NCBI GenBank assembly: GCA_020348985.1
Contig: CP070761.1
Location: 1,521,249 to 1,585,248, forward strand
Length of the DNA: 64,000 bases
Direction: 5' to 3'
Source: Candidatus Thorarchaeota archaeon
Lineage (GTDB): Archaea > Asgardarchaeota > Thorarchaeia > Thorarchaeales > Thorarchaeaceae
The notes beneath the pieces were generated by a model, which saw only the letters and a list, made by a program, of their open reading frames with translations, ran no database searches and was not told the origin of the DNA. Shown piece after piece: positions 30,023 through 53,550 of this stretch (position 1 is its first letter; the number at the start of each line of letters is the position of its first letter). A program made the translations under genes and the position numbers.

Positions 30023-31324
30023 CTATTCTGCAACTCCACACCAATCGAGGACAGTGACTGCGATTACCTCTGCGGTCTTTACTATTGATTCTATACTGAC
30101 TCGTTCATCATATGAATGGATGCGCTCAGCCTTGGGACCGAAGGTCACAGCAGGAATCCCGTTGTGGACAAAGAACCTAGTGTCGAGTCCCGCAGCGCCT
30201 CCATAATAAACTGGCGATGCGCAACCGACTCGAACAGCATTCTCGCTCAATAGTAGTACGAAAGGGTGTTCAGGATCTAGTTCATGAGGTCGGGCATTCC
30301 AGCCAAACCACTCCACATGGGGCATATTGTCCTTTAGCCATTCATCTTGCCTAGCAGCTTTCCGAATAGTATCTTCTACTTGTTTTCTTACTTCTTCACG
30401 AGTCTCACCTGGAGGCCAACCAATCCTGCACTCTATCGTGCATGAACCCGGAACAGTGGATGGCCAATCACCAGCCCTAACGGTTCCTACGTTGATTGTG
30501 GTGGCCTTTCCCTTCATTAATGGGTCAGTTTCGGCGTACGGATAATGGATGACACTTTGCCTGTGTTCGTTCAGGCCTTTCAACGCTTGCAGAATCGGAA
30601 GCATCTTCTCTACTGCGTTGACTCCGAAGTGAGCGGTAGCTGCATGGGCTGGGACTCCTGGCACGATGACACGGAAGTACATCACTCCGGCACTTGCTAC
30701 AGTCAGATTGAGAGCAGTCGGTTCCGGTATGATTGCTGCATCGGCCTTCGGTGAGACCATCCTCATATACAGATTTCCTCCCACACCCCCATCCTCTTCC
30801 TCGATAGTTGTCTCAAAGAAGAGGTCTCCCTTCAACTTCGTCTTGGTTTCAGTCAAGGCTTGCAGCAGAATAAGTAGAGCTGCAACACCAGCCTTCATGT
30901 CGCCAGCTCCTCGACCATAAAGCCAGTTGTCAGCAACATCTCCCGACCAGGGATATCGTGACCACTGCTCGGTTGGTTCCGGAGACACAACATCGACGTG
31001 ACCACTCAGACAGATTGAACGTCCCCCGCCAGAGCCCGCAGTTTTCGCTGAAACATTCGGTCTATCTTTGTATCCATTCTTCACAAAGGAGGTCGTTTCG
31101 AAGTAGTCTGCATGTTCCTTCAAAGCCGAGAGGTCTGGATACACGTACTCCGGGTGAAGACCCAATCTCTTCAAGTACTCAAAGACGTGTCCTTGAACCT
31201 CAGACTCATCACCCGATATACTCGGTATTCTTACCAAATCCTGTGTTGTACGAATGAGCAGCTCCTTGTGCTCTCGAATCCACGTCAACACCCTAGTAGC
31301 AGAGGTCTCCTCATTCATTACCAA
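30023..31324 (-). CDS. ArgE/DapE-family (M20) deacylase
   Basis: LSGHVDVV, YGRGAGDMKAG, EEE, IPEPT, IHSYDE. Confidence 0.9.
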   Translation of the reverse strand: MVMNEETSATRVLTWIREHKELLIRTTQDLVRIPSISGDESEVQGHVFEYLKRLGLHPEYVYPDLSALKEHADYFETTSFVKNGYKDRPNVSAKTAGSGGGRSICLSGHVDVVSPEPTEQWSRYPWSGDVADNWLYGRGAGDMKAGVAALLILLQALTETKTKLKGDLFFETTIEEEDGGVGGNLYMRMVSPKADAAIIPEPTALNLTVASAGVMYFRVIVPGVPAHAATAHFGVNAVEKMLPILQALKGLNEHRQSVIHYPYAETDPLMKGKATTINVGTVRAGDWPSTVPGSCTIECRIGWPPGETREEVRKQVEDTIRKAARQDEWLKDNMPHVEWFGWNARPHELDPEHPFVLLLSENAVRVGCASPVYYGGAAGLDTRFFVHNGIPAVTFGPKAERIHSYDERVSIESIVKTAEVIAVTVLDWCGVAE

Positions 31325-31401
31325 TCACCATCATTCTTGAAGCTCGACGAGTGACCCTGCTTCGAGACTCCTGGTTCATCTTCTTGGCTCCTCTCTATTT
31401 T

Positions 31402-33174
31402 TTATGAAGTGTCAATAAGCCGCCGTAAACCTGAACTTATGTCGTCTAGGACCTCTACCAGTCTCGAAATCTCTTCGTCGACTAATCCGAAGATCTTGGA
31501 TCGCTCTGTTTCGAGTTTCGCTAGAGACCCGTGTACATCAATCCAGTCGTAGGGATTATCACTTAGACTCGTGTATCTTGCCACTGTGTCTCTGTCAAGG
31601 TTTGATATTGGCATTCGTCTAATAGAGCTAATGGCTGCATTCAATTCCACATAGTCCCTGATTAGCTCAAGACGAGACATATAGCTGACATCCATTGGTG
31701 GTGGTTTTCGCCACACCCAGCCGATTGTGCGATTGAGGTGCTGGACCGTTGAGACAATGAAGCGATTTACCTCTTCGATTCTGCTCTTATCAGGTAGAAC
31801 GGCCGCTTTCCTAATCATTCTGCTGAATGTGTTCCGTTCTCTGAGTATGCGCTCAATCCTTCTCAGTACCTTTTCAAGACCAAAGGGACTTCGAGGAAGC
31901 TGCCTGTATTCCATTATGATGCTTTCAAACAACTGCAATGGTGTGAAGATGTCATGGGGCAGGATTTCTGCATTTGCAATGTCAAAGATGGATTTCTTCA
32001 TGAACTCAGCATAGAATTCGACGGATGTCCTGTCTAGATTCTCAATATCGTCCTTCTGTGTGTGGTATAGCGGGCTAGGGAAAGACACTCCGTAGATCGT
32101 GGGAACTCCGGATATCTCGAAGAACCAATGATCACTTCCATATGCGGGAGGTCCGTATTGATTCACATCGCGAGGATTCTTGATGGATTCTACCAATCCT
32201 CGAGCGAATTCTTCGAGCTCAAGTGTCGAGACAATGTGATTCTGAGCGTTATATCCAATTGAATCGAGACTAAGAATCACTGCCGCTCTCGATACAATCT
32301 CAGGATTGGCTCTAACATAAGCTCTCGAGCCATTAATCCAATAGTAATATGTTGTACCCCCACACTCTTCTGCACCAAAGAACAGAAATCGAACAGTCCT
32401 CCTCAGTTGCCCCCCATTTTTCACGTACTCGGACATAAGTCTGGCCAACTCGAGGACGATTGCAGCAGGAGCGCCTCCATCTGCGGCGCTATGGAAATAC
32501 GCATCATAGTGAGCACCAATGAATACTTCGTGAGAGGAAAGTTCTTCGCCCTCCAATGAGACCTCAAGGTTTGAAGAAGATGCATTCTCGTCCACTTCGA
32601 CTTCTGTTACGATTTTGATTTCTACCTCTCCTCTCTCCATTAGATTAGATAAGAAATCAGCATCTTCCTTCGATATGCTCAGCAGAGGCAATTTCATCTC
32701 AGGACCAACTTCGGTTACAACGACCTTCCTCAAATTCCCTTCATCAGGTGAAGCGACGAGGACAGCACCAAGTTTTTGCCTCTGAGCTGAAAAGCAGGTG
32801 CGCGCCGGTGATAGGTACAAATGCGGACCCCACGAAGCAAGTCCAACCATGCCCTCTCTCTTCGATGGTTCTTCCTTATCCAAATGATTCAGTCTTACTA
32901 GTTTGGACTCGACATCGATGGAGGGAGAGTATGGAAACAGCGCTGATGTGATCTTCTTTCTGACAGGTGAGACGATTTCAACTGCCACTGATTTTGGGTA
33001 CCACCCATATACTTGGAATGGACTCTCGATTATCTCTTTAAAACCAAAGCTTGTCAATTGCTTCTTGATAAACTGACATGCTTGTTTCTCAGCCTTGGAT
33101 CCAGCTAGGCGATACTCGATTCTGGATAGGCCTTCGATGTACTCAAGGATACGATCAGTCGACACGTTCTCCAA
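31402..33174 (-). CDS. M28 metallopeptidase with PA domain and helical C-terminus (cytoplasmic), paralog A
   Basis: RLAGS, GAHYD, AAD, AEE, SLD, GSDH, YHTQKDD; no signal peptide. Confidence 0.85.
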   Translation of the reverse strand: MENVSTDRILEYIEGLSRIEYRLAGSKAEKQACQFIKKQLTSFGFKEIIESPFQVYGWYPKSVAVEIVSPVRKKITSALFPYSPSIDVESKLVRLNHLDKEEPSKREGMVGLASWGPHLYLSPARTCFSAQRQKLGAVLVASPDEGNLRKVVVTEVGPEMKLPLLSISKEDADFLSNLMERGEVEIKIVTEVEVDENASSSNLEVSLEGEELSSHEVFIGAHYDAYFHSAADGGAPAAIVLELARLMSEYVKNGGQLRRTVRFLFFGAEECGGTTYYYWINGSRAYVRANPEIVSRAAVILSLDSIGYNAQNHIVSTLELEEFARGLVESIKNPRDVNQYGPPAYGSDHWFFEISGVPTIYGVSFPSPLYHTQKDDIENLDRTSVEFYAEFMKKSIFDIANAEILPHDIFTPLQLFESIIMEYRQLPRSPFGLEKVLRRIERILRERNTFSRMIRKAAVLPDKSRIEEVNRFIVSTVQHLNRTIGWVWRKPPPMDVSYMSRLELIRDYVELNAAISSIRRMPISNLDRDTVARYTSLSDNPYDWIDVHGSLAKLETERSKIFGLVDEEISRLVEVLDDISSGLRRLIDTS

Positions 33175-33183: not shown

Positions 33184-34488
33184 TCACAGTTTCTTGATGC
33201 CGGCTTCAAGGAGTGCAAAAACTTGCTGTGCCTGATCATCTGAGATGCACAACGGCGGTTGGATTCTTAGTACGTTTTTGTGGACGCCTCCGGTTCCAAC
33301 TAAAACCCCTTCGCCAAACATGTGCTCTGCAAGCGCCTGAGTCTCATCAACTGCCGGTTCTTTGGTTCCTTTGTCTTTAACAAATTCAATGCCAATCATT
33401 AGGCCCAACCCCCGGGCATCGCCCACAATCTCATACTTGTCAATCAATTCCTTCGATGACCGAAGAATCAAATCTCCAACCTTCTTCGAGTTATCTATCA
33501 GGCCCTCTTCTTGGAGGTAGTTGATATTCTCCAATGCTACCGCGCAGCAGACGGGGTTTCCTCCAAAGGTCGAGAAATGATCACCTGACTGAAGACATTG
33601 TACTATCTCATCAGTGTATATTGCTCCTCCAATGGGCATTCCTCCTCCCAATCCTTTCGCCATGGTCATAATATCCGCCTGGATGTCCCAGAGCTCATGA
33701 GCGAACATTGAACCGCATCGACCGAATCCAGTCTGCACTTCGTCAGTGATGTACAGAATTTCATGGTCTGCACATATTTGTCGGACCTTTGGATGGTAGC
33801 CTTCTGGAGGAACGATGATACCACCTTCTCCCATTACAGGTTCTACTATCATGGCAGCAACGTCGCCGGTTGTGTGGTATTTGATAACATCTTTCACTCT
33901 CCGGGCACATTCGAGTCCGCAATCTGGATATTGAAGAGGGCATCTGTAGCAATAAGGTGCGGGCGCGTGAAATACTCCTGGATAGATGGCAAAACTCCCA
34001 AAGCCCACCTTGTATTTTGCTTGACCTGTCAAGGTAAGAGAGAGTCCCAACCTACCGTGGAATGAACCTTCCAGCGCTATGACACCTGATCCTGCCTTTC
34101 CTTTCCAAACTGAATACTTCTTGGCTAGCTTCACGGCTGCCTCCACTGCCTCAGCGCCGCTGTTGCAGAAGAATACCTTTCTGAGATGCTTTGGAGAGAT
34201 TGAGGCTAGTTTCTCCGCTAGTAGCGTCTGTGGAACACTATAGTATAAGCCTGAACAATGAATGAGCTTTCCAAGCTGCTCAGCACCTGCCTCAACAAGA
34301 CGCTGAGGTGAGTGTCCTGCATTAGTTACACTAATCCCACTTAGACAATCTATGTACTCCTTCCCTTCTACATCCTTCAGAATGGCACCAGTGCCCTCTT
34401 GGATGACAACTGGTTTCCTCTTGTAAACAGCGGCCAAGTATTCGTTATCTTTAATCATAATTTCTTTCGAGCTTACCAAAGCTGACAA
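33184..34488 (-). CDS. Class III PLP aminotransferase (acetylornithine/4-aminobutyrate family)
   Basis: NSGAEAVEAAVK, SFHGR, EPVMGEGG, DEVQTGFGR, MAKGLGGG, STFGGNP. Confidence 0.92.
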   Translation of the reverse strand: MSALVSSKEIMIKDNEYLAAVYKRKPVVIQEGTGAILKDVEGKEYIDCLSGISVTNAGHSPQRLVEAGAEQLGKLIHCSGLYYSVPQTLLAEKLASISPKHLRKVFFCNSGAEAVEAAVKLAKKYSVWKGKAGSGVIALEGSFHGRLGLSLTLTGQAKYKVGFGSFAIYPGVFHAPAPYCYRCPLQYPDCGLECARRVKDVIKYHTTGDVAAMIVEPVMGEGGIIVPPEGYHPKVRQICADHEILYITDEVQTGFGRCGSMFAHELWDIQADIMTMAKGLGGGMPIGGAIYTDEIVQCLQSGDHFSTFGGNPVCCAVALENINYLQEEGLIDNSKKVGDLILRSSKELIDKYEIVGDARGLGLMIGIEFVKDKGTKEPAVDETQALAEHMFGEGVLVGTGGVHKNVLRIQPPLCISDDQAQQVFALLEAGIKKL

Positions 34489-34547: not shown

Positions 34548-34594
34548 TGAACAATGATAAGAAAGGTCCCAACATACATGTTCAATCTTGAACA
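34548..34594 (-). promoter_or_regulatory. 47-bp regulon element, copy A (before aminotransferase-M28A-deacylase unit)
   Basis: Minus strand: TGTTCA AGAT TGAACA TGTA TGTTGG GACCTTTCTTATCAT TGTTCA. Confidence 0.8.
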
Positions 34595-34744: not shown

Positions 34745-34791
34745 TGTTCAGCGTTGAACATGTATGTTGGGACCCTTCATATCATTGTTCA
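34745..34791 (+). promoter_or_regulatory. 47-bp regulon element, copy B (before M28 paralog B)
   Basis: TGTTCA GCGT TGAACA TGTA TGTTGG GACCCTTCATATCAT TGTTCA; 42/47 identical to copy A, inverted. Confidence 0.8.
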
Positions 34792-34848: not shown

Positions 34849-36657
34849 TTGGAGATTGGTCTGATGAATGTTGAGAAGACTTCGATTGACGAAATCCGCA
34901 AAACGGTCGAATATCTCTGCGACCTCGGTCAGAAGGTTGCTGGCACTGAACCTGAAGTTCAGGCCGCTAATTATCTGCACGAGCGTTTGAGGGAATTTGG
35001 GTTTACACATGTAGAGATGCAGTCATTCGATGTTCATGGTTGGTATCCTCTTTCCTCCTCTGTAAGAATCACTCAACCAATCCAAAAGGAGATTGAATCT
35101 GCTCTGTTCCCACACTGCAAGTCTGAGGAAGTAGAGGGACGTCTTGTGGCTTTCAAGAAGGATGCTGATCCCACATTGTCTCGAAAAGGACTCATTGCCT
35201 ACTCGGAGTGGGGGCCAGATCCATACCTCAGCCCAAGAAGGACTTACTACCATGCAGTGAGACAAGGATATGACGGTCTCATTGTTGCTGCTCCTGATAA
35301 GGGTGACTTTCTCAAGGTTGTTGTACTTGCGATTGGAGGGCTGCTTGAGATACCCGTAGTCTGTATCACAAAAGAAGAAGGTGATTCTCTTTCATCTCTC
35401 ATTGAATCGGAAGAAGTCTCTGTGAACATCAAGACAGAAATCGAGACTTCAGACCAATCGCAGTCCTACAATGTAATGGCAACCCTGGAGGGTGATGGAA
35501 CAGCTGAGCATGAGGTTATAGTGGGTGCACACTACGACTCCTGGTTCCAGGGAGCAGGCGACAATTGCGCTCCTGCTGCCACAGTTCTTGAATTGGCCCG
35601 GCTATTTGGCAGACAGGCTCAGGCAGGAAGACCTCCTAGGAGAACAATCAGGTTTCTATTCTACGGCGCCGAAGAGAGCGGCACGAATGATTTCTACTTC
35701 TGGCTTAATGGGTCAAAGGCGTTTGTCAAAAGCAACCCAGAAATAGTTGCGAGGACTGCTGCTGTTCTCAGCTTGGACTCAACAGGATACACCAGCCCTG
35801 CTAAGGATTACATATACGCCACAGCCGATGTCTTTGAGTTCGCCAAATCCATTCAAGTTGAGCTTGAGCCGACTCTTGAGTTCCAGTACTTAGACCCTCC
35901 AAGTTATGGTAGCGATCATTGGTTCTTTGAACTATCGGGAATCCCTACGATCTATGGCGTGGCATTTCCAAGCCCCCTCTATCACACGCAAAAGGATGAC
36001 CCTGACCACCTTGATTTTCATGCAGTGCACTACTATGCCGAATACATGAAAGAGGCATTGTCATATCTATCTGAAGTTGAACTGCTTCCTATTGACATCT
36101 TCTTACCGTTAAAGAGGTTCGAGCAAATCTTCAAGAAGTATCAGAAGCTGGACGAGAATCCGTTTGACTTCAGTCCAATCCTGGCCAAATTGAGGGTTCT
36201 GATGAAACAGGAATCGAGTACAAGGAGACTTCTCAAAGCTGCATCCAAATCAAGTAATCCTGATACCATCTCGGAACTCAACCAGTTCCTGCTCCGGACA
36301 GCCAACAAGTACAATCAGACTATCGGCTGGATAACACGTCCTCACGAGACCTATGCTTCTAACTACTTGTGCCGACTGGAGATGATAGAAGATATCATCC
36401 ATCTCACAAACTCGGTCAAGAACCTACGCAATATACCCATCTCCAATTTCATGTCAGAAAGAGCAGCACTTTACGATAGCCAATCTGACAATGCTTACAA
36501 CTGGATCCGTATTCACGAGCCTCTTGCGAGAATAGAAGAAGAATGCACTAGGATTCGAAGGGAGATAGAAGAAGAGCTGAAGATGCTCTCATCGATGATT
36601 GACAGCATTTCTGAAGACATTGCAGGATTGACTGAAGAACAGGTATCTAGTCACTGA
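34849..36657 (+). CDS. M28 metallopeptidase with PA domain, paralog B
   Basis: GAHYD, GAGDN, AEE, SLD, YGSDHWFFE, YHTQKDD; co-linear with paralog A; alternative start ATG 34864. Confidence 0.85.
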   Translation: MEIGLMNVEKTSIDEIRKTVEYLCDLGQKVAGTEPEVQAANYLHERLREFGFTHVEMQSFDVHGWYPLSSSVRITQPIQKEIESALFPHCKSEEVEGRLVAFKKDADPTLSRKGLIAYSEWGPDPYLSPRRTYYHAVRQGYDGLIVAAPDKGDFLKVVVLAIGGLLEIPVVCITKEEGDSLSSLIESEEVSVNIKTEIETSDQSQSYNVMATLEGDGTAEHEVIVGAHYDSWFQGAGDNCAPAATVLELARLFGRQAQAGRPPRRTIRFLFYGAEESGTNDFYFWLNGSKAFVKSNPEIVARTAAVLSLDSTGYTSPAKDYIYATADVFEFAKSIQVELEPTLEFQYLDPPSYGSDHWFFELSGIPTIYGVAFPSPLYHTQKDDPDHLDFHAVHYYAEYMKEALSYLSEVELLPIDIFLPLKRFEQIFKKYQKLDENPFDFSPILAKLRVLMKQESSTRRLLKAASKSSNPDTISELNQFLLRTANKYNQTIGWITRPHETYASNYLCRLEMIEDIIHLTNSVKNLRNIPISNFMSERAALYDSQSDNAYNWIRIHEPLARIEEECTRIRREIEEELKMLSSMIDSISEDIAGLTEEQVSSH

Positions 36658-36677: not shown

Positions 36678-36724
36678 TGTTCATTCGTGTACACTGTTGT
36701 TGGGACTCTTATTATGGGTGTTCA
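36678..36724 (+). promoter_or_regulatory. 47-bp regulon element, copy C (before C-N hydrolase)
   Basis: TGTTCA TTCG TGTACA CTGT TGTTGG GACTCTTATTATGGG TGTTCA; extra TGAACA at 36661. Confidence 0.78.
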
Positions 36725-36776: not shown

Positions 36777-37679
36777 GTGAATCCAAGAATGGAAAGACGT
36801 CTGGGAGTAGCGGGACTCCAGCTTGAGAAAGATCCGTTTGATAGTGACATCAACTTCAAGAAACTGGAGTACATAACTCGGAAGGTCAAGTCTACATTTC
36901 CTTGGGTTGATTTGGTCTTTACTGGAGAACTATACCTCCAGCAATATGGAAGCAGCGATTGGAAAGAGTTTGCTCAACCAATCCCGAATGACATGACAGA
37001 CAGACTGTCTGAAATTGCTCGAGACAACGAGTGCTGGTTTGTACCAGGTTCTTTTTTGGAGAAGGAGAGTGACAAGATATTCAATACCGCACTCGTCTAT
37101 GATCCAAATGGAGACATAGTAGCCAAGTATAGAAAGCTCTATCCTTGGATGCCTTTTGAGGACACAAGTTATGGCACTAGCTTTGTTACATTCGACATTC
37201 CAGGTGTAACGAGGATTGGGATTGTCATATGCTATGATTTGTGGTTTCCTGAGGTTTTCAGGACACTAGCCTGGATGGGTGCCGAGGTAATATTGCAGCC
37301 ATCCGCTACCTATACGCCAGACCGCGCAGCGGAGCTCGTTTTGACTCCAGCTCAGGCAATCATGCATCAATGCTATGTTCTAAACTCGAACGTAATCAGT
37401 GCCATGGGGGGAGGTCTATCTATCTTTGCGGACCCCGAAGGCCGAATCCTACAACAAGTTGGCACACATGAGGAGATTATGACAGAGGTCATCGACTTGG
37501 ATAGGGTTGATTGGATTCGTCAGAATGGATCGTTTGGGATAACTCCCGTGTGGAAGAGCCTAAGAGATTCTCCACTCAGAATGAAGTATCCAGTTTACGA
37601 ACGCTTTGAAGAAGGTGCGATACTCAAGAAGCTAGGGGAAATGAAGGTGCAGAAAAGCATCCGTGAATGGACGGACTAG
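36777..37679 (+). CDS. Carbon-nitrogen hydrolase (nitrilase/amidase superfamily)
   Basis: Catalytic E-K-C triad: FTGEL, YRKLYPW, ICYDLWFPE. Confidence 0.9.
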   Translation: MNPRMERRLGVAGLQLEKDPFDSDINFKKLEYITRKVKSTFPWVDLVFTGELYLQQYGSSDWKEFAQPIPNDMTDRLSEIARDNECWFVPGSFLEKESDKIFNTALVYDPNGDIVAKYRKLYPWMPFEDTSYGTSFVTFDIPGVTRIGIVICYDLWFPEVFRTLAWMGAEVILQPSATYTPDRAAELVLTPAQAIMHQCYVLNSNVISAMGGGLSIFADPEGRILQQVGTHEEIMTEVIDLDRVDWIRQNGSFGITPVWKSLRDSPLRMKYPVYERFEEGAILKKLGEMKVQKSIREWTD

Positions 37680-38707
37680 ATATCATGAGAAACCCCACTC
37701 AGCAATTCTCTACACCTCTTGGAGTATTGTTCACATTGATTCTAATTCTAATGATTCTTGTATTTCCGCAGCCCAGCACAGGTCAATCTGACCAGAGTGA
37801 CTTGACTGGTATTCAGGTGGCGTTGTATACAGGGGGTCCAACAAGTGAATCCAGCCGCGAATCTCTTTCCAGAATGTTCTCATGGATGAACGCAAGTGTC
37901 ACTGTTCTTTCAGGAAGCGCGATAAGGGAAGGTGAACTCGAGAATTTTGATCTAGTTGTCATTCCTGGAGGATATGCACCTGACTTTATAGACGACATAG
38001 GTGCACGAGGGCTTGACAAGATCAGAGATTTCACTAGTAATGGAGGATCTTTCATCGGAGTATGTGCAGGTGCATACTTCGCTTCAGATTACATAATATG
38101 GCAAGGTATACCGACCGAGTATCGACTAGACCTGTTTGATGGTGCTGCTGTTGGTGCCATTGATCAAATCGCCCCTTGGCCAAACTTCCAGATGTGTACA
38201 ATAAGCATCAACCGCAATTCAATTCGGATTGACCTCTCTTCAGAACCGGCTAACCACACGATCATGTATTTCGGGGGCCCTTATTTCCTGCCAAGTGACC
38301 CCAGTGAAATCGAGATTCTGGCAACTTATGATATCAATGATGAAGCAGCCATGATATCTTTCGAGTATGGTCAAGGTAGAGTGTTTCTATCAGGTCCTCA
38401 TCCTGAATGGGAAGAAGATTCAGACCGAGACAATGCTAGTTGGCCTGATGATTTTGACGACAATGGCTCTGAGTGGAACCTAATGCTTAGCGTGTCACTC
38501 TGGCTAACAGAGAATGTGAACAAACCAAGCATTACCGAATTTCAACTGCCACACCTAGTTGGAGTGGCTTTCTTGGTCGTGGGAGCCATCGGCACTGTCG
38601 CCATATTCATACATGTGTTGAGGAATCGTGTCGACTATAGGAATAAATTCTATCAAAGAGGTCCAGAAACGGCAGATTTGCTGATGTTCACCTTTGTCCA
38701 CTCATGA
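37667..38707 (+). CDS. Exported, membrane-anchored class I glutamine amidotransferase-like (BPL_N-type) hydrolase
   Basis: Signal-like N-terminus, VIPGG, GVCAGAY nucleophile elbow, GPHPE, C-terminal TM; likely start ATG 37685. Confidence 0.75.
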   Translation: MDGLDIMRNPTQQFSTPLGVLFTLILILMILVFPQPSTGQSDQSDLTGIQVALYTGGPTSESSRESLSRMFSWMNASVTVLSGSAIREGELENFDLVVIPGGYAPDFIDDIGARGLDKIRDFTSNGGSFIGVCAGAYFASDYIIWQGIPTEYRLDLFDGAAVGAIDQIAPWPNFQMCTISINRNSIRIDLSSEPANHTIMYFGGPYFLPSDPSEIEILATYDINDEAAMISFEYGQGRVFLSGPHPEWEEDSDRDNASWPDDFDDNGSEWNLMLSVSLWLTENVNKPSITEFQLPHLVGVAFLVVGAIGTVAIFIHVLRNRVDYRNKFYQRGPETADLLMFTFVHS

Positions 38708-38741
38708 ACAAAGATGTTGGTCGCATTTTAATCGTTGTACA
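38695..38741 (+). promoter_or_regulatory. 47-bp regulon element, copy D (before ABC transporter)
   Basis: TGTCCA CTCA TGAACA AAGA TGTTGG TCGCATTTTAATCGT TGTACA; extra in-phase TGTTCA at 38685. Confidence 0.72.
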
Positions 38742-45524: not shown

Positions 45525-46658
45525 CTACTTGCTGGGGTACTTGCGTCCAACCTCTCGCGCTTTCGTGAAATGCAATACTGCCGATGCCACACCCTCTTCC
45601 CTGGATATCTCCTCTATCTTTTCGAGGGCTAGGAGTGATCTGAGTAATTTCATGGAAAGGTCCTTCATAGGAGCCGTCCTACTTCTGATTTGAACACGCA
45701 TCATATCTCCGTCGGCAGAGACATTGGACCATTCCCAAAGCCCTAGTGTTCCAATCACTGAGACTGTGCGGTCTACTAGATTGGAGACACTAGACGTGTC
45801 CTTCTCACCATTGATGACGTCGAGTTGTTGTGCATGCTCTCTGATGCTAACAAGCGTCTTGTCACTAATCGGATCCTCTATCGTGTTGGTGACAAGCCAA
45901 TCTAGAAGAGAAGGACTTAGTGTGACGACACCTCGATGACCTGTCTGTGAAGAAAGCCGCTCTCTTCGGTCTCGCCACAACGTGATGACACGTCTGTCTC
46001 TTTCAATCTTCACCTGATTGTACTCATTCTGGTGGATCCACGTGACACTTATCTTGTTGTCAGCTACGATCTCTACATCAAAAGTGAACCCAGCTTCCTC
46101 CCATCCTGCAATCAGCATTATGACAAGTAGCTCAGGTAGCCCCTGAAACATACCTGTTGTGAGGAGAAGTCTCTTCCTCTCGGATGAACATTCAACTGAC
46201 CTAAGGACTCCAACATCTCTAAGGAAGTTCGCATTGGCAACAAGCGATTCGTAATTGTTCTCCCAGAACTCCTCTGGAATTACACCCACACTCATGAGCA
46301 GCTTGGTTTGCTCAATCCCAATCTTCTTGGCCTCCAATGTTAAGTCTCTAACGGAATGGGTGCCTAGACCGCAGCCAGCGCACAGCGATAATAGATTTGA
46401 GCTGACTAGTATCATGTCAGCGGATTGAATGAGGGAATTGTGTAGGCGTGATGTCTTGATGGCATCGCACTCTTCACAATTGGGGAGATCTCTTCTTGTG
46501 CTGTAATGCTTCACAGCTTCTTCAAGAACATCATTGATGCGTCTCGAGTCACTTGAGAGTTCCTTCAAAAGATTCTTGGTGCTGGCGGAGACTGTAGTAT
46601 GTAGATGCACTCTCGGTTCACGAGACCCATTATAGTCATGTGAGTCCATAACATCCAT
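45525..46658 (-). CDS. Putative transcription regulator: N-terminal ribbon-helix-helix, CxxC, two tandem alpha/beta putative ligand-binding domains
   Basis: RVHLHTTVSASTKNLLKEL...INDVLEEAV RHH pattern; start moved to ATG 46658 (or 46649) because the track's N-terminal extension is occupied by regulon hexamers. Confidence 0.6.
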   Translation of the reverse strand: MDVMDSHDYNGSREPRVHLHTTVSASTKNLLKELSSDSRRINDVLEEAVKHYSTRRDLPNCEECDAIKTSRLHNSLIQSADMILVSSNLLSLCAGCGLGTHSVRDLTLEAKKIGIEQTKLLMSVGVIPEEFWENNYESLVANANFLRDVGVLRSVECSSERKRLLLTTGMFQGLPELLVIMLIAGWEEAGFTFDVEIVADNKISVTWIHQNEYNQVKIERDRRVITLWRDRRERLSSQTGHRGVVTLSPSLLDWLVTNTIEDPISDKTLVSIREHAQQLDVINGEKDTSSVSNLVDRTVSVIGTLGLWEWSNVSADGDMMRVQIRSRTAPMKDLSMKLLRSLLALEKIEEISREEGVASAVLHFTKAREVGRKYPSK

Positions 46659-46797
46659 GAACAAACCCACCGGTTCGTGTTCAAGACATCTATTCCAGTT
46701 ATAGATTCGTGAACATAAGCATTCCGAAGCAGTGAGGTTTGTTGAATCTTTGAACAAGGTCATGACGAAGTGTCTTTCTCATGTGCACCCTTGTTCA
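46658..46797 (-). promoter_or_regulatory. Cluster of regulon hexamers including degenerate 47-bp copy F (46751-46797)
   Basis: Hexamers at 46658, 46678, 46710, 46751, 46782, 46792; minus strand TGAACA-N4-TGCACA-N25-TGTTCA keeps the consensus spacing. Confidence 0.62.
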
Positions 46798-48417
46798 TTC
46801 GTGAAGGTGGTCGCCCATGAGAGTCCCACGAATGAAGAATTTCTCAAATTCACCGTATGAGGCTAATTCTACATATCGAGCAGAATCCGCAATTTCTTCT
46901 GCTATCTCCCTATGAGCTATTGACAACAGCATCTTCTTTGCACCGTCTCCGGCTGCGTTGCCAACTTGAACAACACGATTCGGATCAATGGCGGGCAAGA
47001 GTCCAATGGAGACTGCGCTTTCGGGATTGATGTATGTCCCAAATGCTCCAGCTAGATAGACAGCGTCGATTTCCGTCAATGCAACATCTGCCTCTCTAAT
47101 GAGGATGTGAGTGCCTGCTAGGATTGCGCTCTTGGCAAGTTGGACTTGACGAACATCCTTTTGCGTGAACAATATTCGAGACTCAGAGTCATGCTCCCCC
47201 TTCTCGACAAGGACATAGGACGCCACCGACGGACCTACATGAATGATTCGATTCGACTCCTGCAATCTTCCGTCTTCGTCAAGCAAGCTATGCTTGAGTA
47301 GTTCTGAGACAATATCTACTATTCCCGATCCGCATATTCCTCTGGGTACACCGCCGCCGATTACTTCAATCTCGGCAGGCTGAGAAGGATCATCGATTGT
47401 AACATGTTCAATCGCACCTTCCTGACCTCTCATTCCCTGAGATATCGTAGCCCCTTCGAATGCAGATCCGGCTGCAGCTGAACAGCAAAAGAGCTCACCG
47501 TATTTGGACAACACAATCTCACCATTGGTTCCAATATCAGCACCGAGAACAACATCTTCAGACTGGTCGAGCCTCTGCGAAAGAATGAACGCTACGGTGT
47601 CCCCTCCCACAAATCCAGCGATATTCGGTGAGCAATAGACTTGGGCGGCCGAAACTTGGCCAAGCCCAACAACCTTTGAATCGGCGTTGAATGAATGTTT
47701 CATTGCTGGTTCATATGGGGCAAAGCCTAATGACGAAGTGTCTATTCCCAAGAATAGGTGATGCATTGCTGTGTTACCAACTACGGAGATTCGGCCAACT
47801 GCTTCAGAGGAAACCTGGCCTGCTTCGCATACTTCCTTAATCAGTCCGTCGATCGCTTGAACGACCAAGGACTGAAGACTGGCTGCACCCTCATCATTCT
47901 GTAAGGCATGAGTGATTCTTGTGACTACGTCCTCACCATATTCAATTTGAGGGTTGAGCATAGAAGCGCATCCAATCTGTGCCCCGTCCTTCAAGCCAAG
48001 AAGATAGGCAACAATAGTAGTAGTGCCAAGGTCAATGGCAACGCCATATTCACCGTCGATGGGCGCGTCAATAGCAATCTCATCGGTTGTGATTAGATGT
48101 TCAGCAAGAATCTTACTTCGACCTTCAACACGTGTCAGAATCGCTCTACAATGGGCCTTTGCTGTGTGTTCACAAGCAAGACGAACTCCGCGTCTGATAT
48201 CTTCGCCTTTGAGGTGAAGCGAGTCGATCTTGGTCGGCGATGGTTTGGGCTTAAGTATGATTCTACACTTGCCACATGTTCCTTTGCCTCCGCACTCAGC
48301 CGGTATATGCAAACCCATTCTTCTTGCTGCCTCTAGAAAAGAAGTATTGGAGTCCAAAAGGATTCGTAGCCCTGAAGGCTCGAATACTACTAACCACCTC
48401 TCTTCCAAGAATGTCAC
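46795..48417 (-). CDS. Reductive activator of corrinoid proteins (RACo; 2Fe-2S + ASKHA/DUF4445)
   Basis: CGGKGTCGKC...RLAC, DLGTTT, GNTAMHHL, DIGTNGE, GICGSG, QLAKSAI, LAGAFG, GNAAG. Confidence 0.92.
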   Translation of the reverse strand: MTFLEERWLVVFEPSGLRILLDSNTSFLEAARRMGLHIPAECGGKGTCGKCRIILKPKPSPTKIDSLHLKGEDIRRGVRLACEHTAKAHCRAILTRVEGRSKILAEHLITTDEIAIDAPIDGEYGVAIDLGTTTIVAYLLGLKDGAQIGCASMLNPQIEYGEDVVTRITHALQNDEGAASLQSLVVQAIDGLIKEVCEAGQVSSEAVGRISVVGNTAMHHLFLGIDTSSLGFAPYEPAMKHSFNADSKVVGLGQVSAAQVYCSPNIAGFVGGDTVAFILSQRLDQSEDVVLGADIGTNGEIVLSKYGELFCCSAAAGSAFEGATISQGMRGQEGAIEHVTIDDPSQPAEIEVIGGGVPRGICGSGIVDIVSELLKHSLLDEDGRLQESNRIIHVGPSVASYVLVEKGEHDSESRILFTQKDVRQVQLAKSAILAGTHILIREADVALTEIDAVYLAGAFGTYINPESAVSIGLLPAIDPNRVVQVGNAAGDGAKKMLLSIAHREIAEEIADSARYVELASYGEFEKFFIRGTLMGDHLHE

Positions 48418-49323
48418 CTAACTTATCCTGTAACGAGGATGTGTCTTGTCAATGGGGGTTCGAGTTTCAAGCAAAATACCCGATAGCGCTACATCAATCA
48501 TTGCAATAGACGGGTAGACAATTGGTGCATCTTGTACCGGGCCGTACAGGACAAAGTCAGCCCCTAAGACAACAGGCATCAGATTGGATCCGACGAAAGC
48601 AGGCTTTTTCGCTTCATCTCCAAACTTCGGAACCAACCCCCTCCAAGTACTAACAGCATTGTGTGCGCCGCAGCCAACAGGGTATCCTTGTTTTTCTTTG
48701 ATAGTTTGTAGTGCTTTACAAGCTAGGCCTAGAGTGAGTAGGTCTGCAACACCTGTGTCGATGAGCAAGTTTGTGAAACCAGAATTCTTTGCTTTTTTTA
48801 TTAGGGAATCAGCCAATTCAACTCTCTTCGTGGCTGATGCCATGGCTTCTGACGAGAAAGTGAGAAGCACTACATTCTTGAGGCCAGTATCCTGGAACCG
48901 GGAATAGACTTCGCCTGAAGATTCAGGAGTCAGGGAATTCAAAACCACTCTATGAAGAAGACCAGCATCGCTTGCAGCATTCACACCGGCAAGATTGACT
49001 GCTGTTTGGTCTGATCCATCAATCATGAGTGGAGAATCTGTCATGTCGGCTAGCAATCGGATGTATCTGTCGGCTGCCTCTGGAGATATCGCAACGACAT
49101 CTAACATGCTGGGCAATCCGGTCTTTTCAGAAGTCTCCTCCAAATTCTGGAGGACATCCTCTGTTCCCGCTACATCAATTCTGCCCGATTTGGGATCTAA
49201 AACGAGTCTGTCACCTGTGTAGAAAATTGACCCTACTAGGACTGTGGGATTGACACCAGGTTGTCCACCTATCTTTACTCCACCGATTTCAAGTATCTTT
49301 TGTTCGACTTGATATTCGAACAA
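48418..49323 (-). CDS. mtrH: MtrH-like methylcorrinoid:H4MPT methyltransferase (soluble, no other Mtr subunits)
   Basis: IGGVKIGGQPG..PTVLVGSIFY, GCGAHNA, GADFVLYGP; TTG 49323 preceded by GGAGGTGA. Confidence 0.85.
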   Translation of the reverse strand: MFEYQVEQKILEIGGVKIGGQPGVNPTVLVGSIFYTGDRLVLDPKSGRIDVAGTEDVLQNLEETSEKTGLPSMLDVVAISPEAADRYIRLLADMTDSPLMIDGSDQTAVNLAGVNAASDAGLLHRVVLNSLTPESSGEVYSRFQDTGLKNVVLLTFSSEAMASATKRVELADSLIKKAKNSGFTNLLIDTGVADLLTLGLACKALQTIKEKQGYPVGCGAHNAVSTWRGLVPKFGDEAKKPAFVGSNLMPVVLGADFVLYGPVQDAPIVYPSIAMIDVALSGILLETRTPIDKTHPRYRIS

Positions 49324-49372
49324 GGGTCTCACCTCCAATAATGAGCGTCGACGCGACCCCACGTTAGATTGA

Positions 49373-50752
49373 TTAATAGAGGAATCTCACACCGAGGTCC
49401 GCAACCTCTTGCTTCACTCTTTCATATATCTCGTAGCACTCCTTTGAAGGTCTACCGGTCACAGGATCACAGCACTCTTGGAACGTTTTGCCCCTTGGTG
49501 GGTCACCAACCCTGTCAGCAAATCTCGGGATGATTCTCTTTACAATCTCGTTTGCATCATCCCTTGTGATACCAGCAGACGCGTAGGCAACCTCCGAGGC
49601 GAACATTGGCTCAATTGGTGTCAGATAATCTGTGTACTTCCCTCTGGCAACGCCTCCGGTCTCAATTGACCCTCCTGAAGATATTCCGCCAATGAATTCT
49701 GCAGCAAACTCGTAAAGCACCATCTCGGTACAGGGGCCCGCAGCAGTGTAGTTGTAATATAGCGCTGGCACCTGTGTATTCCTTGACACAGCCTGCAGGT
49801 ATTGGCTGGCCACCCAGATTAGCTCTGGTGTGGAACTTGAGGTATACTTGAGGTGGATCGGGAAGCACAGTGTCCAGGATGCGCCAAGGGTCATTATTGC
49901 CATTATGTGAAAAGCCGTGGACGTGATTGCTGTTCCTTCTGCTCCCCCTGCAAAGCCACCATAGATGGGACCATGAATCCCTGCGATTGGAACATTCAGT
50001 GATTGTAGAAGTGCTGCACGATTCAGCAAATCAAAATCTGTCTTTAGCTCAGCAAGCTGAGCAATCATGTATCCGTCTGTCTTCCGTAGTCCAAAATCGG
50101 GATGCAAACCTGAAGCAAGGGCGATAGCGGACTCTGCGGTCCCAATAGCATTCATGATGGGTAGTCCAGGTCGCCCAGCTCTTCTCAAAGCCTCCCGCCC
50201 CAGAACCACAGTTCGTATACTACCCTCGATTTCGAGTGGTGATTTCGCACGAATGCTCATATCGCCGACATTAGCCAGGCAGGGAGTGGTAATCGCGTTT
50301 GCAATCGGTATCAGTTCTGCATAGTTTTGAACAAGTTTCATGAACACGTTCTCACTAGACACAGTTACCCCCCCGGCCCCTGCGAAAATCCATGGTTTCT
50401 CCTTTGACTCTGGCTTCCTTGGTAGCAGAGTTCGTTGTTCCATACCCTCGCCCAGAAGTGCATGGTCAAAGGATGTGTTGATGCTGTCACGAACCTCCTT
50501 CTCTGTGAACGAGATTACTCGTTCAGTGTCCTTGTTGAATACTCCGATCTCGACGATAAGGTCAAAAGCTGCTTTGAATACTGAATCTGCTAGCCCGTCA
50601 TCAGAGGAAATCACGATGTTAGGATCGTACGTGACATCATATTCTTTAACAAGCTCTTGGACTCGCGGAGCAAAGATTCGCAAATCGTAGTCCTTTTCCA
50701 AGCAGGGCTTTCCTTCAAGAGACCTTCGAGTAATCTCCAGTATGTTCAGCAT
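49373..50752 (-). CDS. mtmB: Monomethylamine:corrinoid methyltransferase (MtmB) family homolog, non-pyrrolysine
   Basis: DDGLADSVFKAA, DTERVI, SPLE, AGRPG, ELK, GGFAGGAEG, AGPCTEM, F.ECCD; 459 aa uninterrupted, no in-frame TAG. Confidence 0.85.
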   Translation of the reverse strand: MLNILEITRRSLEGKPCLEKDYDLRIFAPRVQELVKEYDVTYDPNIVISSDDGLADSVFKAAFDLIVEIGVFNKDTERVISFTEKEVRDSINTSFDHALLGEGMEQRTLLPRKPESKEKPWIFAGAGGVTVSSENVFMKLVQNYAELIPIANAITTPCLANVGDMSIRAKSPLEIEGSIRTVVLGREALRRAGRPGLPIMNAIGTAESAIALASGLHPDFGLRKTDGYMIAQLAELKTDFDLLNRAALLQSLNVPIAGIHGPIYGGFAGGAEGTAITSTAFHIMAIMTLGASWTLCFPIHLKYTSSSTPELIWVASQYLQAVSRNTQVPALYYNYTAAGPCTEMVLYEFAAEFIGGISSGGSIETGGVARGKYTDYLTPIEPMFASEVAYASAGITRDDANEIVKRIIPRFADRVGDPPRGKTFQECCDPVTGRPSKECYEIYERVKQEVADLGVRFLY

Positions 50753-51443: not shown

Positions 51444-51490
51444 TGAACAGACACAAAAGCACTCCCAACACCTGTGAACACTCTTGAACA
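51444..51490 (-). promoter_or_regulatory. 47-bp regulon element, copy E (before methyltransferase operon)
   Basis: Minus strand: TGTTCA AGAG TGTTCA CAGG TGTTGG GAGTGCTTTTGTGTC TGTTCA. Confidence 0.78.
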
Positions 51491-51540: not shown

Positions 51541-53376
51541 TTACCTAATATCCTTCAATCCGAGTCTCTCGACGGTTTCATCTGTGGGAATTCCATTCTT
51601 GTCCCAGCCGCGCAGCTCATAGAATCTGTCAAGACAGGCCTCAAAATCCGCTCTATCAACGAAAGAACGCATTCCCTCAGCAGGGCCAGAAGCAACTGGC
51701 TGCCAGAATCGTGGAGGGAGTTCATCATCCTTTCTTGAGACACCTTCTCTTACGTTGAATAGCCGAGTAAGGGTCTCTACTCTCTCTGCAAAGACCTTCA
51801 CACTTTCCTCATCGTATTCAAGTCCTGTGGCACCATTAAGCAAGCGAATCTTCTGATTATGGCTTAGAGGCAAGTGGTACGTAAAATGACATACAACAAG
51901 TGAATCTGTCAAGTGTTTCTCGTCCCTAGCCTTTGTCATGGATTCGACCACATCTATCGCTGACGAAATCGGCTTGTCAGTTGTTGATGGCCAACCTCTA
52001 AGGTGACTTGCACCTACTTCAGCAGTTGCATAGGAAAGACCCATCCCCTTCTTTCCTCGAGGGTCCCAAGCAGCCACAGATAGTCCCTTTACATGGACGG
52101 CAAGCTCTTCACTGCCTTTCCCAATTCTTTCAGCTGCTCTCCTCACACCGTTGGCCAAAATGTCACCAATGCCTTCTCTTCCGGCAATCATCTGGAGCAG
52201 TTCCATTGCCGCCGCACCATCGCCGAATCTCATGGAAAAGCCAAGATCATCTTCCGTTATGATGCCCCTTTCGAATGCCTCCATCGCAAACGCCAGAACT
52301 GAACCTGCCGCTATTGTGTCGATGCCGAGATCATCGCAAAGGTGATTGAGTTGGAGAAGGATATACGGATCGCTTATCCCCAGATTGCCACTCAACATAG
52401 CCTCAGTTTCATATTCGGAAGTTACCTCCACAGCCATCTTTGGAGCTCTCGGATCAGCTACCCTGTGAGCATGCGTACACCTCATTATGCACTGGGGACA
52501 TGACAAGTGCTGACCAGAATACCATTCATGCATAGCTTCAGGTTGCACCTTCTCGTTCTCTTCGAAAAAGCTTGTCTGCCAATTTCGTGTGGGAAACTGG
52601 CCACGTTCGTTGGAGACCTCAATAAGAAAAGATGTTCCATACCTCCTGAAGTCAAAATTCCATGCATCAGTGGCCATATCCTTCCATGAAGTAGTCACTT
52701 CACGATTGACTTCACTGATTGCATCGGAATCATATGCTTCAATCATACCAGAACCTCTGACCACAACTGCTTTGAGATTCTTTGACCCCATCACAGCTCC
52801 AGGACCACCTCGGCCTGTTTGATGAGCGAGTTCGGAGCCGGCCGCAGCAATCAGCGACAGATTCTCCCCTGCTGGACCTATGACATACACTATGTGATCG
52901 TCACCAAATCGCTCGCGTAGAATCCTGGTTGAATCGTGAATCCCTCTGCCCCAAAGGTCTTCTGCACTCTCTAGACGCAGAGAGTCATCTTCAAGAACAA
53001 GCACAGTAGGCTTGTCTGCCTTGCCTTTGACGCACAATACATCGTAGCCTGATTTCTTTATTTCCCTTCCCAGGGCGTGTCCACAATGTGAATCTAGGTA
53101 GAGCCCCGTGAGAGGTGACTTGGTCACTAACGTCCACCTGGCTACGCTAGGACCATTTAGCCCTTGCATAGGTCCTGTGAGGAAGAACAGAACATTCTCT
53201 GGCCTAAGGGGGTCGACTCCTGCTTCCAGTTCTCTATACAGTAGGTATGCTCCAAGTCCCTTTCCGCCCAGGAATTGCTCGTAGACACTTGTATCAAGGC
53301 TCTCCTCATTTGTGGATCCTGTTGACAAATCAACCCAAAGGATTTTGCCAGTCCAACATTCATGTGTCATGTCCAA
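51541..53376 (-). CDS. aor: Aldehyde:ferredoxin oxidoreductase (tungstopterin AOR family)
   Basis: LGGKGLG, KSPLTG, IGPAGE, GRGG.GAVMGSKNLKA, CPQC..RC, CDDLGID, DPRG, GASH. Confidence 0.92.
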   Translation of the reverse strand: MDMTHECWTGKILWVDLSTGSTNEESLDTSVYEQFLGGKGLGAYLLYRELEAGVDPLRPENVLFFLTGPMQGLNGPSVARWTLVTKSPLTGLYLDSHCGHALGREIKKSGYDVLCVKGKADKPTVLVLEDDSLRLESAEDLWGRGIHDSTRILRERFGDDHIVYVIGPAGENLSLIAAAGSELAHQTGRGGPGAVMGSKNLKAVVVRGSGMIEAYDSDAISEVNREVTTSWKDMATDAWNFDFRRYGTSFLIEVSNERGQFPTRNWQTSFFEENEKVQPEAMHEWYSGQHLSCPQCIMRCTHAHRVADPRAPKMAVEVTSEYETEAMLSGNLGISDPYILLQLNHLCDDLGIDTIAAGSVLAFAMEAFERGIITEDDLGFSMRFGDGAAAMELLQMIAGREGIGDILANGVRRAAERIGKGSEELAVHVKGLSVAAWDPRGKKGMGLSYATAEVGASHLRGWPSTTDKPISSAIDVVESMTKARDEKHLTDSLVVCHFTYHLPLSHNQKIRLLNGATGLEYDEESVKVFAERVETLTRLFNVREGVSRKDDELPPRFWQPVASGPAEGMRSFVDRADFEACLDRFYELRGWDKNGIPTDETVERLGLKDIR

Positions 53377-53403
53377 TCTCTCCGAATAGAAGGGTCACAT
53401 AGA

Positions 53404-53550
53404 CTATGAAACATCAATCCTTTTGATCTCATCCAGTTCCATGTCCCTCAAGTGAGTCAGTAATGCCATCATCACATCGTGAATGACATTGTTCACAAAC
53501 TCATTCATTGGAACCCTCTTTCCTTTCACATATAGCTCGATTGGAGGCAT
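53404..53550 (-). CDS. 48-aa protein resembling the C-terminal domain of archaeal MobB; absent from ORF track
   Basis: Manual translation MPPIELYVKGKRVPMNEFVNNVIHDVMMALLTHLRDMELDEIKRIDVS; GGTGA upstream; co-directional, ends 27 bp before aor. Confidence 0.65.
   Translation of the reverse strand: MPPIELYVKGKRVPMNEFVNNVIHDVMMALLTHLRDMELDEIKRIDVS

Follow-up and report, generated by a model that had tools for sequence, protein, structure and literature searches.

A 64,000-nucleotide stretch of the genome of a Candidatus Thorarchaeota archaeon (GenBank assembly GCA_020348985.1, contig CP070761.1, forward-strand positions 1,521,249 to 1,585,248), here called the window and numbered from its first letter, carries what appears to be one co-regulated gene island. 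The island ties a methyltransferase module, built around a pyrrolysine (Pyl)-free homolog of the methyltransferase MtmB, to an importer and to enzymes of amide and amine catabolism. Two observations carry this view: a 47-bp element lies upstream of five transcription units of the island and nowhere else in the genome, and the genes recur together with the element in seven relatives. An earlier reading of the window from its letters alone (below, the original prediction) had proposed both the island and the common element; all the genes that it named are present, Pfam confirming each. On balance we think that the island works as one regulon for a nitrogen-containing substrate, probably an N-methylated one. 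In kind it is a variation on two familiar themes, the corrinoid methyl-transfer system and the substrate-specific catabolic regulon, with a new regulator family.

A 47-bp element at the island promoters

The element has the skeleton TGTNCA-N4-TGNNCA-N4-TGTT-N17-TGTNCA and is 47 bp long. Copy 1 (34548-34594, minus strand) precedes the aminotransferase operon, and copy 2 (34745-34791, plus strand), which mirrors it, precedes the gene for an M28 metallopeptidase (paralog b); orthologous copies of the first are found in the relatives G005, G022, G051 and G087, and of the second in G005, G022 and G087. Copy 3 (36678-36724, plus strand) stands before the CN-hydrolase gene. Copy 4 (38695-38741, plus strand), before the gene for a solute-binding protein, is degenerate, has a good TATA-like stretch, TTTTAATC, and has orthologs in G005, G022 and G051. 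Copy 5 (51444-51490, minus strand) precedes the operon that begins with the genes for a corrinoid protein (CoP) and the MtmB homolog; its orthologs stand at the CoP gene in G005, G019, G022, G082 and G087. All five copies, one for each of five transcription units, lie 25-75 nt upstream of the start codon of their unit.

How specific is the element to these promoters? It surfaced through inverted pairs, and a plain direct-repeat search with a 12-nt seed missed it. A degenerate core pattern gave 4 matches as against 0 in 100 shuffles. In a genome-wide scan with a position weight matrix four copies scored 63-74 and copy 4 scored 29, with a background maximum of 12.4. The 18-base skeleton pattern matches exactly five sites in the 3.16-Mb genome, all of them at island promoters. 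We extended the scan to 86 genomes of the same family, the Thorarchaeaceae, which are relatives of one another, and co-occurrence counts among them overstate independence. The skeleton has 58 matches in 21 of these genomes (the reversed pattern, used as a control, has 0 in all 86), and in all cases checked the element in relatives stands at island promoters.

The 20 instances compared, from 7 genomes, agree at 19 positions (T1 G2 T3 C5 A6, T11 G12 C15 A16, T21 G22 T23 T24, T33, and T42 G43 T44 C46 A47), all but one of them within four boxes of the TGWWCA type that start at positions 1, 11, 21 (a half box, TGTT) and 42; the other positions and the flanks vary. The boxes are spaced by one, one and two helical turns, a phasing that would put all four on the same side of the helix. 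Positions 31-40 form a T-rich, TATA-like stretch (for example TTCATATCAT or the stretch of copy 4), so that box 4 would sit downstream of a likely TATA box and ahead of the expected transcription start; this stretch is poorest at CoP promoters. Six or more genera retain the element at corresponding promoters, although the sequence outside the boxes has diverged. We take this pattern to be the footprint of protein-binding boxes and not a recently copied promoter or a mobile repeat. A miniature inverted-repeat transposable element was considered and rejected, as the element occurs at island promoters only, is conserved only in its boxes and is absent elsewhere in the genome.

Recurrence of the island in Thorarchaeaceae

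In all seven relatives whose island locus was examined (G005, G019, G022, G087, G051, G023 and G082) the same island genes are found in reshuffled order, with the same element at the same promoters. The recurring set comprises an OppBCDF importer and its solute-binding protein, a GATase-like hydrolase, an aminotransferase, one or two M28 peptidases, a CN-hydrolase, an M20 deacylase, the CoP-MtmB pair and a 377-aa protein that is our candidate regulator (see below); a polysaccharide deacetylase and a short-chain dehydrogenase/reductase (SDR) usually adjoin it. The conserved sites of the element are those before the aminotransferase operon, the M28 gene, the binding-protein gene and the CoP gene. 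Hydrolase and importer genes do, then, co-occur with the methyltransferase module in relatives, as the original prediction expected.

An MtmB ortholog (65-80% identity) is present in 16 of the 86 genomes, from 4 genera, and in every one of the 16 no more than about 60 nt separate MtmB from the end or start of the candidate regulator gene. The two relatives from the same genus, one of them 98% complete, have no MtmB ortholog. The candidate regulator itself is found in 18 genomes, all of which carry the element, and an ortholog of the binding protein, at 54% identity or more, in 19. Carriers of the island belong to six or more genera, in which its distribution is patchy. With a size of about 22-24 kb, it would on the whole seem to be a Thorarchaeaceae-specific, patchy, accessory unit.

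One relative bears directly on the place of methyl transfer in the island. In G051 (85% complete) the elements, the regulator, the importer, the aminotransferase and every hydrolase are present, but its island lacks the CoP-MtmB pair and its whole genome gave no MtmB candidate. Because G051 has an island without MtmB, the methyl module would be an optional add-on to an importer and hydrolase core, and the central place that the original prediction gave to methyl removal is not supported.

Some further features of these relatives were noted. The binding-protein orthologs fall into two identity classes with respect to this genome, 64-78% and 54-58%, and may differ in ligand specificity; genomes without the element have another group, at 46-48% identity. 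The G022 ortholog (locus L018, G022:C40:11376-13195) matches in two pieces, residues 43-354 and 360-645, which points to a frameshift or a damaged gene. G082, a single 2.58-Mb contig, has its island in two parts 1.38 Mb apart (loci L025-L027 and L034-L035). The break lies inside oppF: residues 1-103 end a run from M20 to OppD and OppF', and residues 92-328 begin a run OppF'-CoP-MtmB-regulator. Either a genuine rearrangement has destroyed oppF or the contig is misassembled here, and for that reason the two-locus layout was rejected as proof of regulation in trans.

A candidate regulator of a new family

What reads the element? The best candidate is the product of the gene at 45525-46658 (minus strand), a 377-aa protein whose N-terminus is ribbon-helix-helix (RHH)-like and is followed by a CxxC pair and by two domains of an alpha/beta, sensor-like kind. 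(The open reading frame as listed, 412 aa, begins too early; the 377-aa start is the one used by all homologs.) That this protein is the likely regulator of the element is well supported by its co-occurrence with the element and by the boxes on its own promoter, which look autoregulatory. In this genome a cluster of five TGWWCA hexamers (46658-46797, minus strand) covers the promoter and the start codon of the gene, five in 150 bp where 0.22 would be expected. In 14 relatives the promoter keeps a TGTTCA at about -52, a TGAACA at about -21 and a TGTTCA that overlaps the ATG (TGTTCAtg), and the spacings between these boxes, 31 and 21 bp, recur inside the 47-bp element.

The family is small. It numbers about 30 proteins at 41% identity or more, all the source-named ones being from Asgard archaea, mostly Thorarchaeota, and only 19 matches were found among 1.84 billion cluster representatives. 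Pfam and NCBIfam gave no match for the protein, and none of 27 family members has a Pfam match at E values up to 5. Residues R16, H18, L19, H20, T21 and T22 are invariant, as is the CxxC pair that follows the helices. In an AlphaFold (AF2) model of the monomer, helices 25-34 and 41-54 follow the segment R16-x-H18-L-H20-T-T22, and the strand is not formed. The motif R-x-H-x-H-T-T and two short helices would be the pattern of an RHH unit, whose strand forms only in the dimer; a homodimer prediction (two copies of residues 10-78) scored 0.39 against a mark of 0.42, which counts neither for nor against a dimer. The domain at 79-215 has a weak likeness to H-NOX (Z 6.7, 127 aligned), to Bet3/TRAPP (Z 6.4, 128-134 aligned) and to BcsD (Z 7.4), Z scores that are middling and of a commonly met size; no Foldseek match in the PDB reached E 1e-3. 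Most matches of the wide fold search fall in the last domain, whose ferredoxin-like fold is generic. We regard the RHH and sensor-domain labels, which come from models, as leads only. The 'RHH regulator' of the original prediction is a 377-aa multidomain protein that looks RHH-like at its N-terminus and has no match to an RHH model.

The ESM Atlas places the protein beside the uncharacterised archaeal AF_0136_C family (score 0.95, 211/256 features), and its structure rows include an RHH_1 cluster (TM 0.63) and an HNOB cluster (TM 0.55). A literature search on AF_0136 returned nothing relevant, and the distant relatives of the regulator have genomic contexts unrelated to one another and to the island.

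To our knowledge, hardly any transcription-factor/operator pair from Asgard archaea has been established experimentally. The protein and the element make a candidate pair, with 58 natural operator variants in 21 genomes and a putative autoregulatory site. The binding protein of the importer and the sensor part of the regulator also provide two extra handles on the ligand.

The Pyl-free MtmB homolog and its partners

The MtmB homolog (49373-50752, minus strand) matches Pfam MtmB (PF05369) with E 4.5e-95 over profile positions 2-449 of 450, and aligns end to end with MtmB of Methanosarcina barkeri (1L2Q; E 1e-67, residues 9-457). Its reading frame is unbroken, with no in-frame stop, and has Met200 at the pyrrolysine position (M. 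barkeri residue 202). Since this Met replaces pyrrolysine and is invariant across 18 homologs of 45-100% identity, we read the protein as a member of the MtmB fold family that is not a canonical monomethylamine methyltransferase.

The CoP gene (50757 to about 51419, minus strand; Pfam B12-binding_2 and B12-binding) lies 5 nt upstream of MtmB, a pairing found in all relatives looked at. Its product scores 217 bits with TIGR02370, which is over the cut-off, and has the DxHxxG motif as DIHEIG at residue 129 of the listed frame; the true start is probably Met25 or Met30 of that frame. Downstream of MtmB are genes for an MtrH-like methyl-corrinoid:pterin methyltransferase (48418-49362, minus strand; Pfam MtrH, E 2e-69) and a RACo-type corrinoid reductive activase (46795-48417, minus strand; Pfam Fer2, Raco_middle and RACo_C_ter). 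The latter has the N-terminal cluster cysteines and is the single RACo match in the genome.

A four-component demethylation operon had been proposed here. All four components (CoP, MtmB, MtrH and RACo) are indeed present, but they share one operon in this genome only. In relatives the CoP-MtmB pair stands alone in the island, and MtrH and RACo are together elsewhere, without the element (G005, G019, G022); in these three the MtrH orthologs, which lie outside the island, have 61% identity and the RACo orthologs 48-54%. RACo was found in 80/86 genomes of the family. We conclude from these gene orders that the complete operon is, as far as they tell, a local consolidation and not an ancestral design. 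The apparent move of MtrH and RACo to a place beside MtmB supports the view that both serve MtmB. In passing, many RACo_C_ter matches in relatives are given with 1-2 in-frame stops (TAA/TAG/TGA) inside the match, which may be real or an artefact of the alignment, the open frames being listed at about 420-580 aa.

Mtd is encoded in the window, and the genome also has Mch and CdhC, so a methyl group placed by MtrH on tetrahydromethanopterin (H4MPT) could enter the Wood-Ljungdahl pathway. McrA was not found in the genome. There is one MTTB homolog (PF06253), 1.5 Mb away and outside the island.

Function is known for one relative. MtqB of Methanococcoides methylutens Q3c demethylates tetramethylammonium and choline and has very little activity with monomethylamine (PMC13044021, 2026). 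This was the first function assigned to any Pyl-free MtmB, and such homologs occur in Asgard archaea (PMC13044021). As Pyl-free MtmB homologs are widespread in sediment archaea and one alone has a known function, the context offered by the island narrows the search for a methyl donor.

Importer, hydrolase and aminotransferase genes

The aminotransferase operon is transcribed leftward from copy 1. Its first gene (33184-34488, minus strand) encodes a class-III aminotransferase of the omega-amine type (Pfam Aminotran_3, E 6e-114) that stays under all NCBIfam equivalog cut-offs, so that its substrate is not definable from models. It is followed by M28 metallopeptidase paralog a (31402-33174, minus strand; Pfam Peptidase_M28, E 2e-24) and, last in the operon, by an M20 deacylase of the ArgE/DapE family (30023-31324, minus strand; Pfam Peptidase_M20 and M20_dimer), which scores 286 bits with TIGR01910, over the cut-off, and has as its nearest structure 3pfo, a putative acetylornithine deacetylase. 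M28 paralog b (34849-36657, plus strand; Pfam Peptidase_M28, E 6e-33) is monocistronic, is 42% identical to paralog a, and has as nearest structures a PA-domain aminopeptidase (2ek8) and glutamate carboxypeptidase II. Neither paralog has a signal peptide or an N-terminal hydrophobic anchor, and both are classed as cytoplasmic.

On the plus strand follow an amidase-type CN-hydrolase (36777-37679; Pfam CN_hydrolase, E 2e-32), with residues compatible with an E-K-C triad and with Nit2 omega-amidase, formamidase and aliphatic amidase as nearest structures, and a GATase-1-like (BPL_N) hydrolase (37667-38707; Pfam BPL_N, E 4e-25), whose N-terminal hydrophobic segment suggests that it is membrane-anchored or exported. 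Next come the genes of the importer, all on the plus strand: a family-5 solute-binding protein with a signal peptide (38772-40715; Pfam SBP_bac_5, E 4e-57), a fused OppBC permease (40814-43546; Pfam BPD_transp_1 twice, and OppC_N), OppD (43552-44511) and OppF (44511-45524), the last two each with Pfam ABC_tran and oligo_HPY. A family-5 binding protein, two permease domains and two oligo_HPY ATPases make this an Opp/Dpp (PepT-family) importer. The nearest named relatives of the binding protein are NikA, opine and oligopeptide binders, all far under the cut-offs, and the class of ligand cannot be read from them.

Two further genes on the minus strand, an SDR (27594-28355; Pfam adh_short_C2, E 2e-70) and a polysaccharide-deacetylase-family (CE4) hydrolase (28355-29182; Pfam Polysacc_deac_1, E 8e-27), are counted with the island. 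SDR orthologs with 56-66% identity adjoin it in G005, G022, G051, G023, G073 and G087, and in G051 and G023 a CE4 ortholog (62-71% identity) comes after M20, the strand order being the same.

What might the island do?

The steps of the following scheme are read from enzyme families alone. Outside the cell, the exported GATase-like hydrolase and the family-5 binding protein would pick up a nitrogen compound with amide linkages, to be imported by the Opp system. The two cytoplasmic M28 peptidases, the M20 deacylase, the CN-hydrolase amidase and the CE4 deacetylase could then open amide bonds, and the class-III aminotransferase, perhaps with the SDR, would handle the freed amine. In most carriers of the island the Pyl-free MtmB would move an N-methyl group from the released amine to CoP; MtrH would hand the methyl to H4MPT and the Wood-Ljungdahl pathway, with RACo re-reducing oxidised cobalt. 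The regulator is envisaged as binding the phased boxes as an oligomer and blocking the promoters, its own included, until the imported compound or a breakdown product binds to the sensor domains. Repression has a slight edge over activation in our judgment, box 4 lying between the TATA-like stretch and the expected start; the poorest TATA-like stretch being at CoP promoters would suit activation too.

Taken in full, this would be a complete self-regulated pathway in which an N-methylated, amide-linked compound (a methylated osmolyte, a dipeptide or a peptide fragment) is imported and dismantled, and Pyl-free MtmB enzymes of a new substrate class channel its N-methyl groups into H4MPT and the Wood-Ljungdahl pathway, under a new family of RHH-plus-sensor regulators whose operator grammar, 1/11/21/42, is legible in the genomes themselves. 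We put this forward tentatively, as a whole that is more doubtful than the regulon itself. For sediment archaea that are not methanogens, the island would be one more way in which N-methylated compounds from detritus might be turned into acetyl-CoA or CO2.

Several points weigh against the scheme or against parts of it. As the original prediction had foreseen, the substrate is not readable from sequence: neither NCBIfam equivalogs nor the nearest solved structures, which are all generic, name one for any of the pathway enzymes. With families this generic and none at an equivalog cut-off, the order of the pathway and its substrate are guesses. Guesses, too, are the substrates put forward in the original prediction, methyl-lysine peptides and acylated methylamines; quaternary amines are what the one characterised non-Pyl MtmB acts on (PMC13044021). 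The SDR and the deacetylase have here lost the context of the element-driven operon. A sole RACo placed in this operon fits poorly with a switch that is turned on for one substrate only. Given that G051 has no MtmB, the methyl module may serve another substrate than the hydrolases do. The regulator, finally, has weak fold matches, matched neither a PDB entry in a sequence-profile search nor an RHH or V4R sequence model, and was not found in three element-positive genomes (G054, G092 and G023), all of them fragmentary and 62-87% complete.

Could the genes instead belong to a nitrogen-scavenging regulon, in which one regulator responds to a common signal (nitrogen status or a shared product) and drives several independent routes that free ammonia or amino groups (import and hydrolysis of peptides, amidases, a glutaminase-like enzyme, transamination, demethylation of methylated amines), each with its own substrate? 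All the enzyme classes of the island release ammonia, an amino group or an amino acid, and an MtmB module dispensable in G051 and two identity classes of binding protein, hinting at more than one ligand, are what such a regulon would lead one to expect. Nitrogen-dependent control of methylamine methyltransferase isozymes in Methanosarcina is moreover cited in PMC13044021. Yet the confinement of regulator and element to the island looks like that of a substrate-specific local regulator, the island holds no ammonium-assimilation genes (glnA, amt), and efficient use of monomethylamine is unlikely for a Pyl-free MtmB (PMC13044021). We judge this explanation rather unlikely.

A second explanation, to which we give a similarly low probability, makes the CoP-MtmB pair a co-regulated passenger that, like MtqB, acts on a free quaternary amine (choline or tetramethylammonium) entering by another way and biochemically unrelated to the amide compound. 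The substrates of MtqB, the sole characterised non-Pyl MtmB, fit it (PMC13044021), as does the G051 island. So does the wider distribution of the family, for which a synteny check had been proposed together with the original prediction. At 79 named loci with MtmB homologs, only orthologs of the Thorarchaeota type, at 70% identity or more, had Opp, M28, M20, aminotransferase or regulator genes linked to them. Homologs from Bathyarchaeia (50-60%) and Thermoplasmata (43-49%) have CoP beside them, sometimes MtrH and RACo, and no island genes. Against a mere passenger, 16 genomes hold CoP-MtmB inside the island (after oppF or beside the regulator) under the same operator; the Thorarchaeota orthologs form a group of their own, with 70-80% identity, the next homologs having 61% or less; and the island contains no BCCT or other carrier of quaternary amines. 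One regulon for one N-containing substrate remains the reading that we prefer.

It is improbable that the element is no more than a strong promoter that has been copied, or that another factor reads it, and that the 377-aa protein is a sensor, a chaperone or a pathway enzyme: the three genomes with the element and no copy of the protein, the weak fold matches and the lack of a sequence-model match to any DNA-binding family would fit this, but the three are the fragmentary genomes named above and all 18 genomes with the protein have elements, the part that is invariant across genera is the boxes and not the whole promoter, and like boxes, one over the start codon, are conserved on the protein's own promoter.

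Comparison with known systems

The enzyme shares with MtmB/MtmC/RamA of M. barkeri (1L2Q, 1NTH) a full-length fold family and the logic of a corrinoid protein with a reductive activase; it differs in having the invariant Met for pyrrolysine 202, an activase of the RACo and not the RamA type, and a pterin in place of coenzyme M as acceptor. MtgA is a methyl-corrinoid:pterin methyltransferase that works with a Pyl-free methyltransferase and a corrinoid protein in a non-methanogen. MtgB-MtgC-MtgA, the glycine betaine system of Desulfitobacterium hafniense, and MtcB, MtpB and MtyB, are Pyl-free relatives among the methylamine methyltransferases (PMC13044021). Systems of the MtgB type belong to the MTTB superfamily (PF06253), whereas the island enzyme belongs to MtmB. 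Also close in kind is MtqB/MtqC: MtqB, too, is a Pyl-free MtmB-family protein, and its gene comes right after that of its corrinoid protein (PMC13044021). In its methanogen MtqB feeds coenzyme M via MtbA; here McrA was not found and the acceptor enzyme is MtrH-like, for H4MPT. The MtqB locus, as described, is without the Opp importer, peptidases, amidases, aminotransferase and dedicated regulator of the island. Papers that name both Thorarchaeota and MtmB do not describe the island.

For the regulator there are two parallels. RHH repressors such as omega, CopG, NikR and MetJ are built from a beta-alpha-alpha unit, are obligate dimers, bind arrays of short boxes, direct or inverted and spaced by about whole helical turns, and autoregulate. 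The island boxes at 1, 11, 21 and 42, which occur in either orientation, resemble such arrays; in contrast to these repressors the 377-aa protein is much larger, has two extra domains and the CxxC pair, and has no RHH match in Pfam. The Msr regulators of the Methanosarcina methanol and methylsulfide methyltransferase genes, from the work of Bose and Metcalf in 2008, reportedly combine a helix-turn-helix DNA-binding domain with a V4R sensor. They, too, are lineage-specific archaeal regulators encoded beside corrinoid methyltransferase genes, with a small DNA-binding domain joined to one or more sensors of a V4R/H-NOX/Bet3-like kind. However, the N-terminus of the 377-aa protein looks RHH, no sequence similarity between the two was detected, and the V4R-like label comes from weak fold matches.

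Setting and boundaries

The window is part of a single-contig genome of 3.16 Mb with 47.8% G+C, and the homologs of its proteins have Asgard source names, mostly Thorarchaeota. Sequencing runs listed for the operon and for the MtmB gene alone were of sediment DNA, with no RNA run among them. In this genome the island genes are, by comparison with relatives, those at 27594-29182 (SDR and deacetylase) and at 30023-51490. Island G+C is 47.3%, similar to the flanks, and no integrase, tRNA or terminal repeat was seen at the island. Between the two parts lies a GNAT gene (29523-29969), which splits the deacetylase and SDR genes from the element-driven operon that holds them in relatives.

Two same-genus genomes that lack the island make its boundaries clear. 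G002 has the gene order MinD-type ATPase, GNAT, aldehyde:ferredoxin oxidoreductase (AOR); G001 has MinD-type ATPase and GNAT, then a homolog of the 657-aa protein at 53724. Because they keep MinD-GNAT-(AOR or next gene) without the island, we count GNAT and AOR as backbone genes. AOR (51541-53376, minus strand; identified by Pfam) lies beyond the island in this genome and has no copy of the element, in agreement with the original prediction, which had nevertheless made it a possible partner in the pathway. Since AOR belongs to the backbone in G002, its adjacency reflects the insertion site and gives no evidence for a pathway link.

On the left flank (22520-27548) are two longin/winged-helix paralogs, with weak Pfam hints of Roadblock, Fuz_longin and TrmB in this region, and the MinD-type ATPase, just downstream of which the island was inserted. 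The deacetylase gene and the divergently oriented GNAT gene are 340 bp apart, and this spacer holds a 33-nt tandem pair, 73% alike, at 29372-29438.

MtmB homologs outside the island

G085 has a second MtmB paralog (locus L050, G085:C37), 65% identical, with its own CoP, outside the island and with no island genes nearby. Beyond Thorarchaeota, an AOR gene lies within 10 kb of the MtmB homolog at 7/65 loci (L051, L052, L071, L090, L097, L108 and L112); a recurrence of 7/65 was judged near chance for AOR-rich archaea, and AOR was rejected as an island member on the G001/G002 synteny. AOR is also near MtmB on the metagenomic contig L031; layouts seen are AOR-Fer4-MtmB-CoP and CoP-MtmB-MtrH ... RACo.

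Metagenomic homologs with 49-55% identity (L032, L033, L116, L117, L118) are often found beside MTTB-family methyltransferases and saccharopine-dehydrogenase-like genes, other neighbors being LarA-like genes, amidases or amidohydrolases, permeases and, once, SBP_bac_5. These neighborhoods hint at a stepwise demethylation of larger N-methylated compounds in other archaea.

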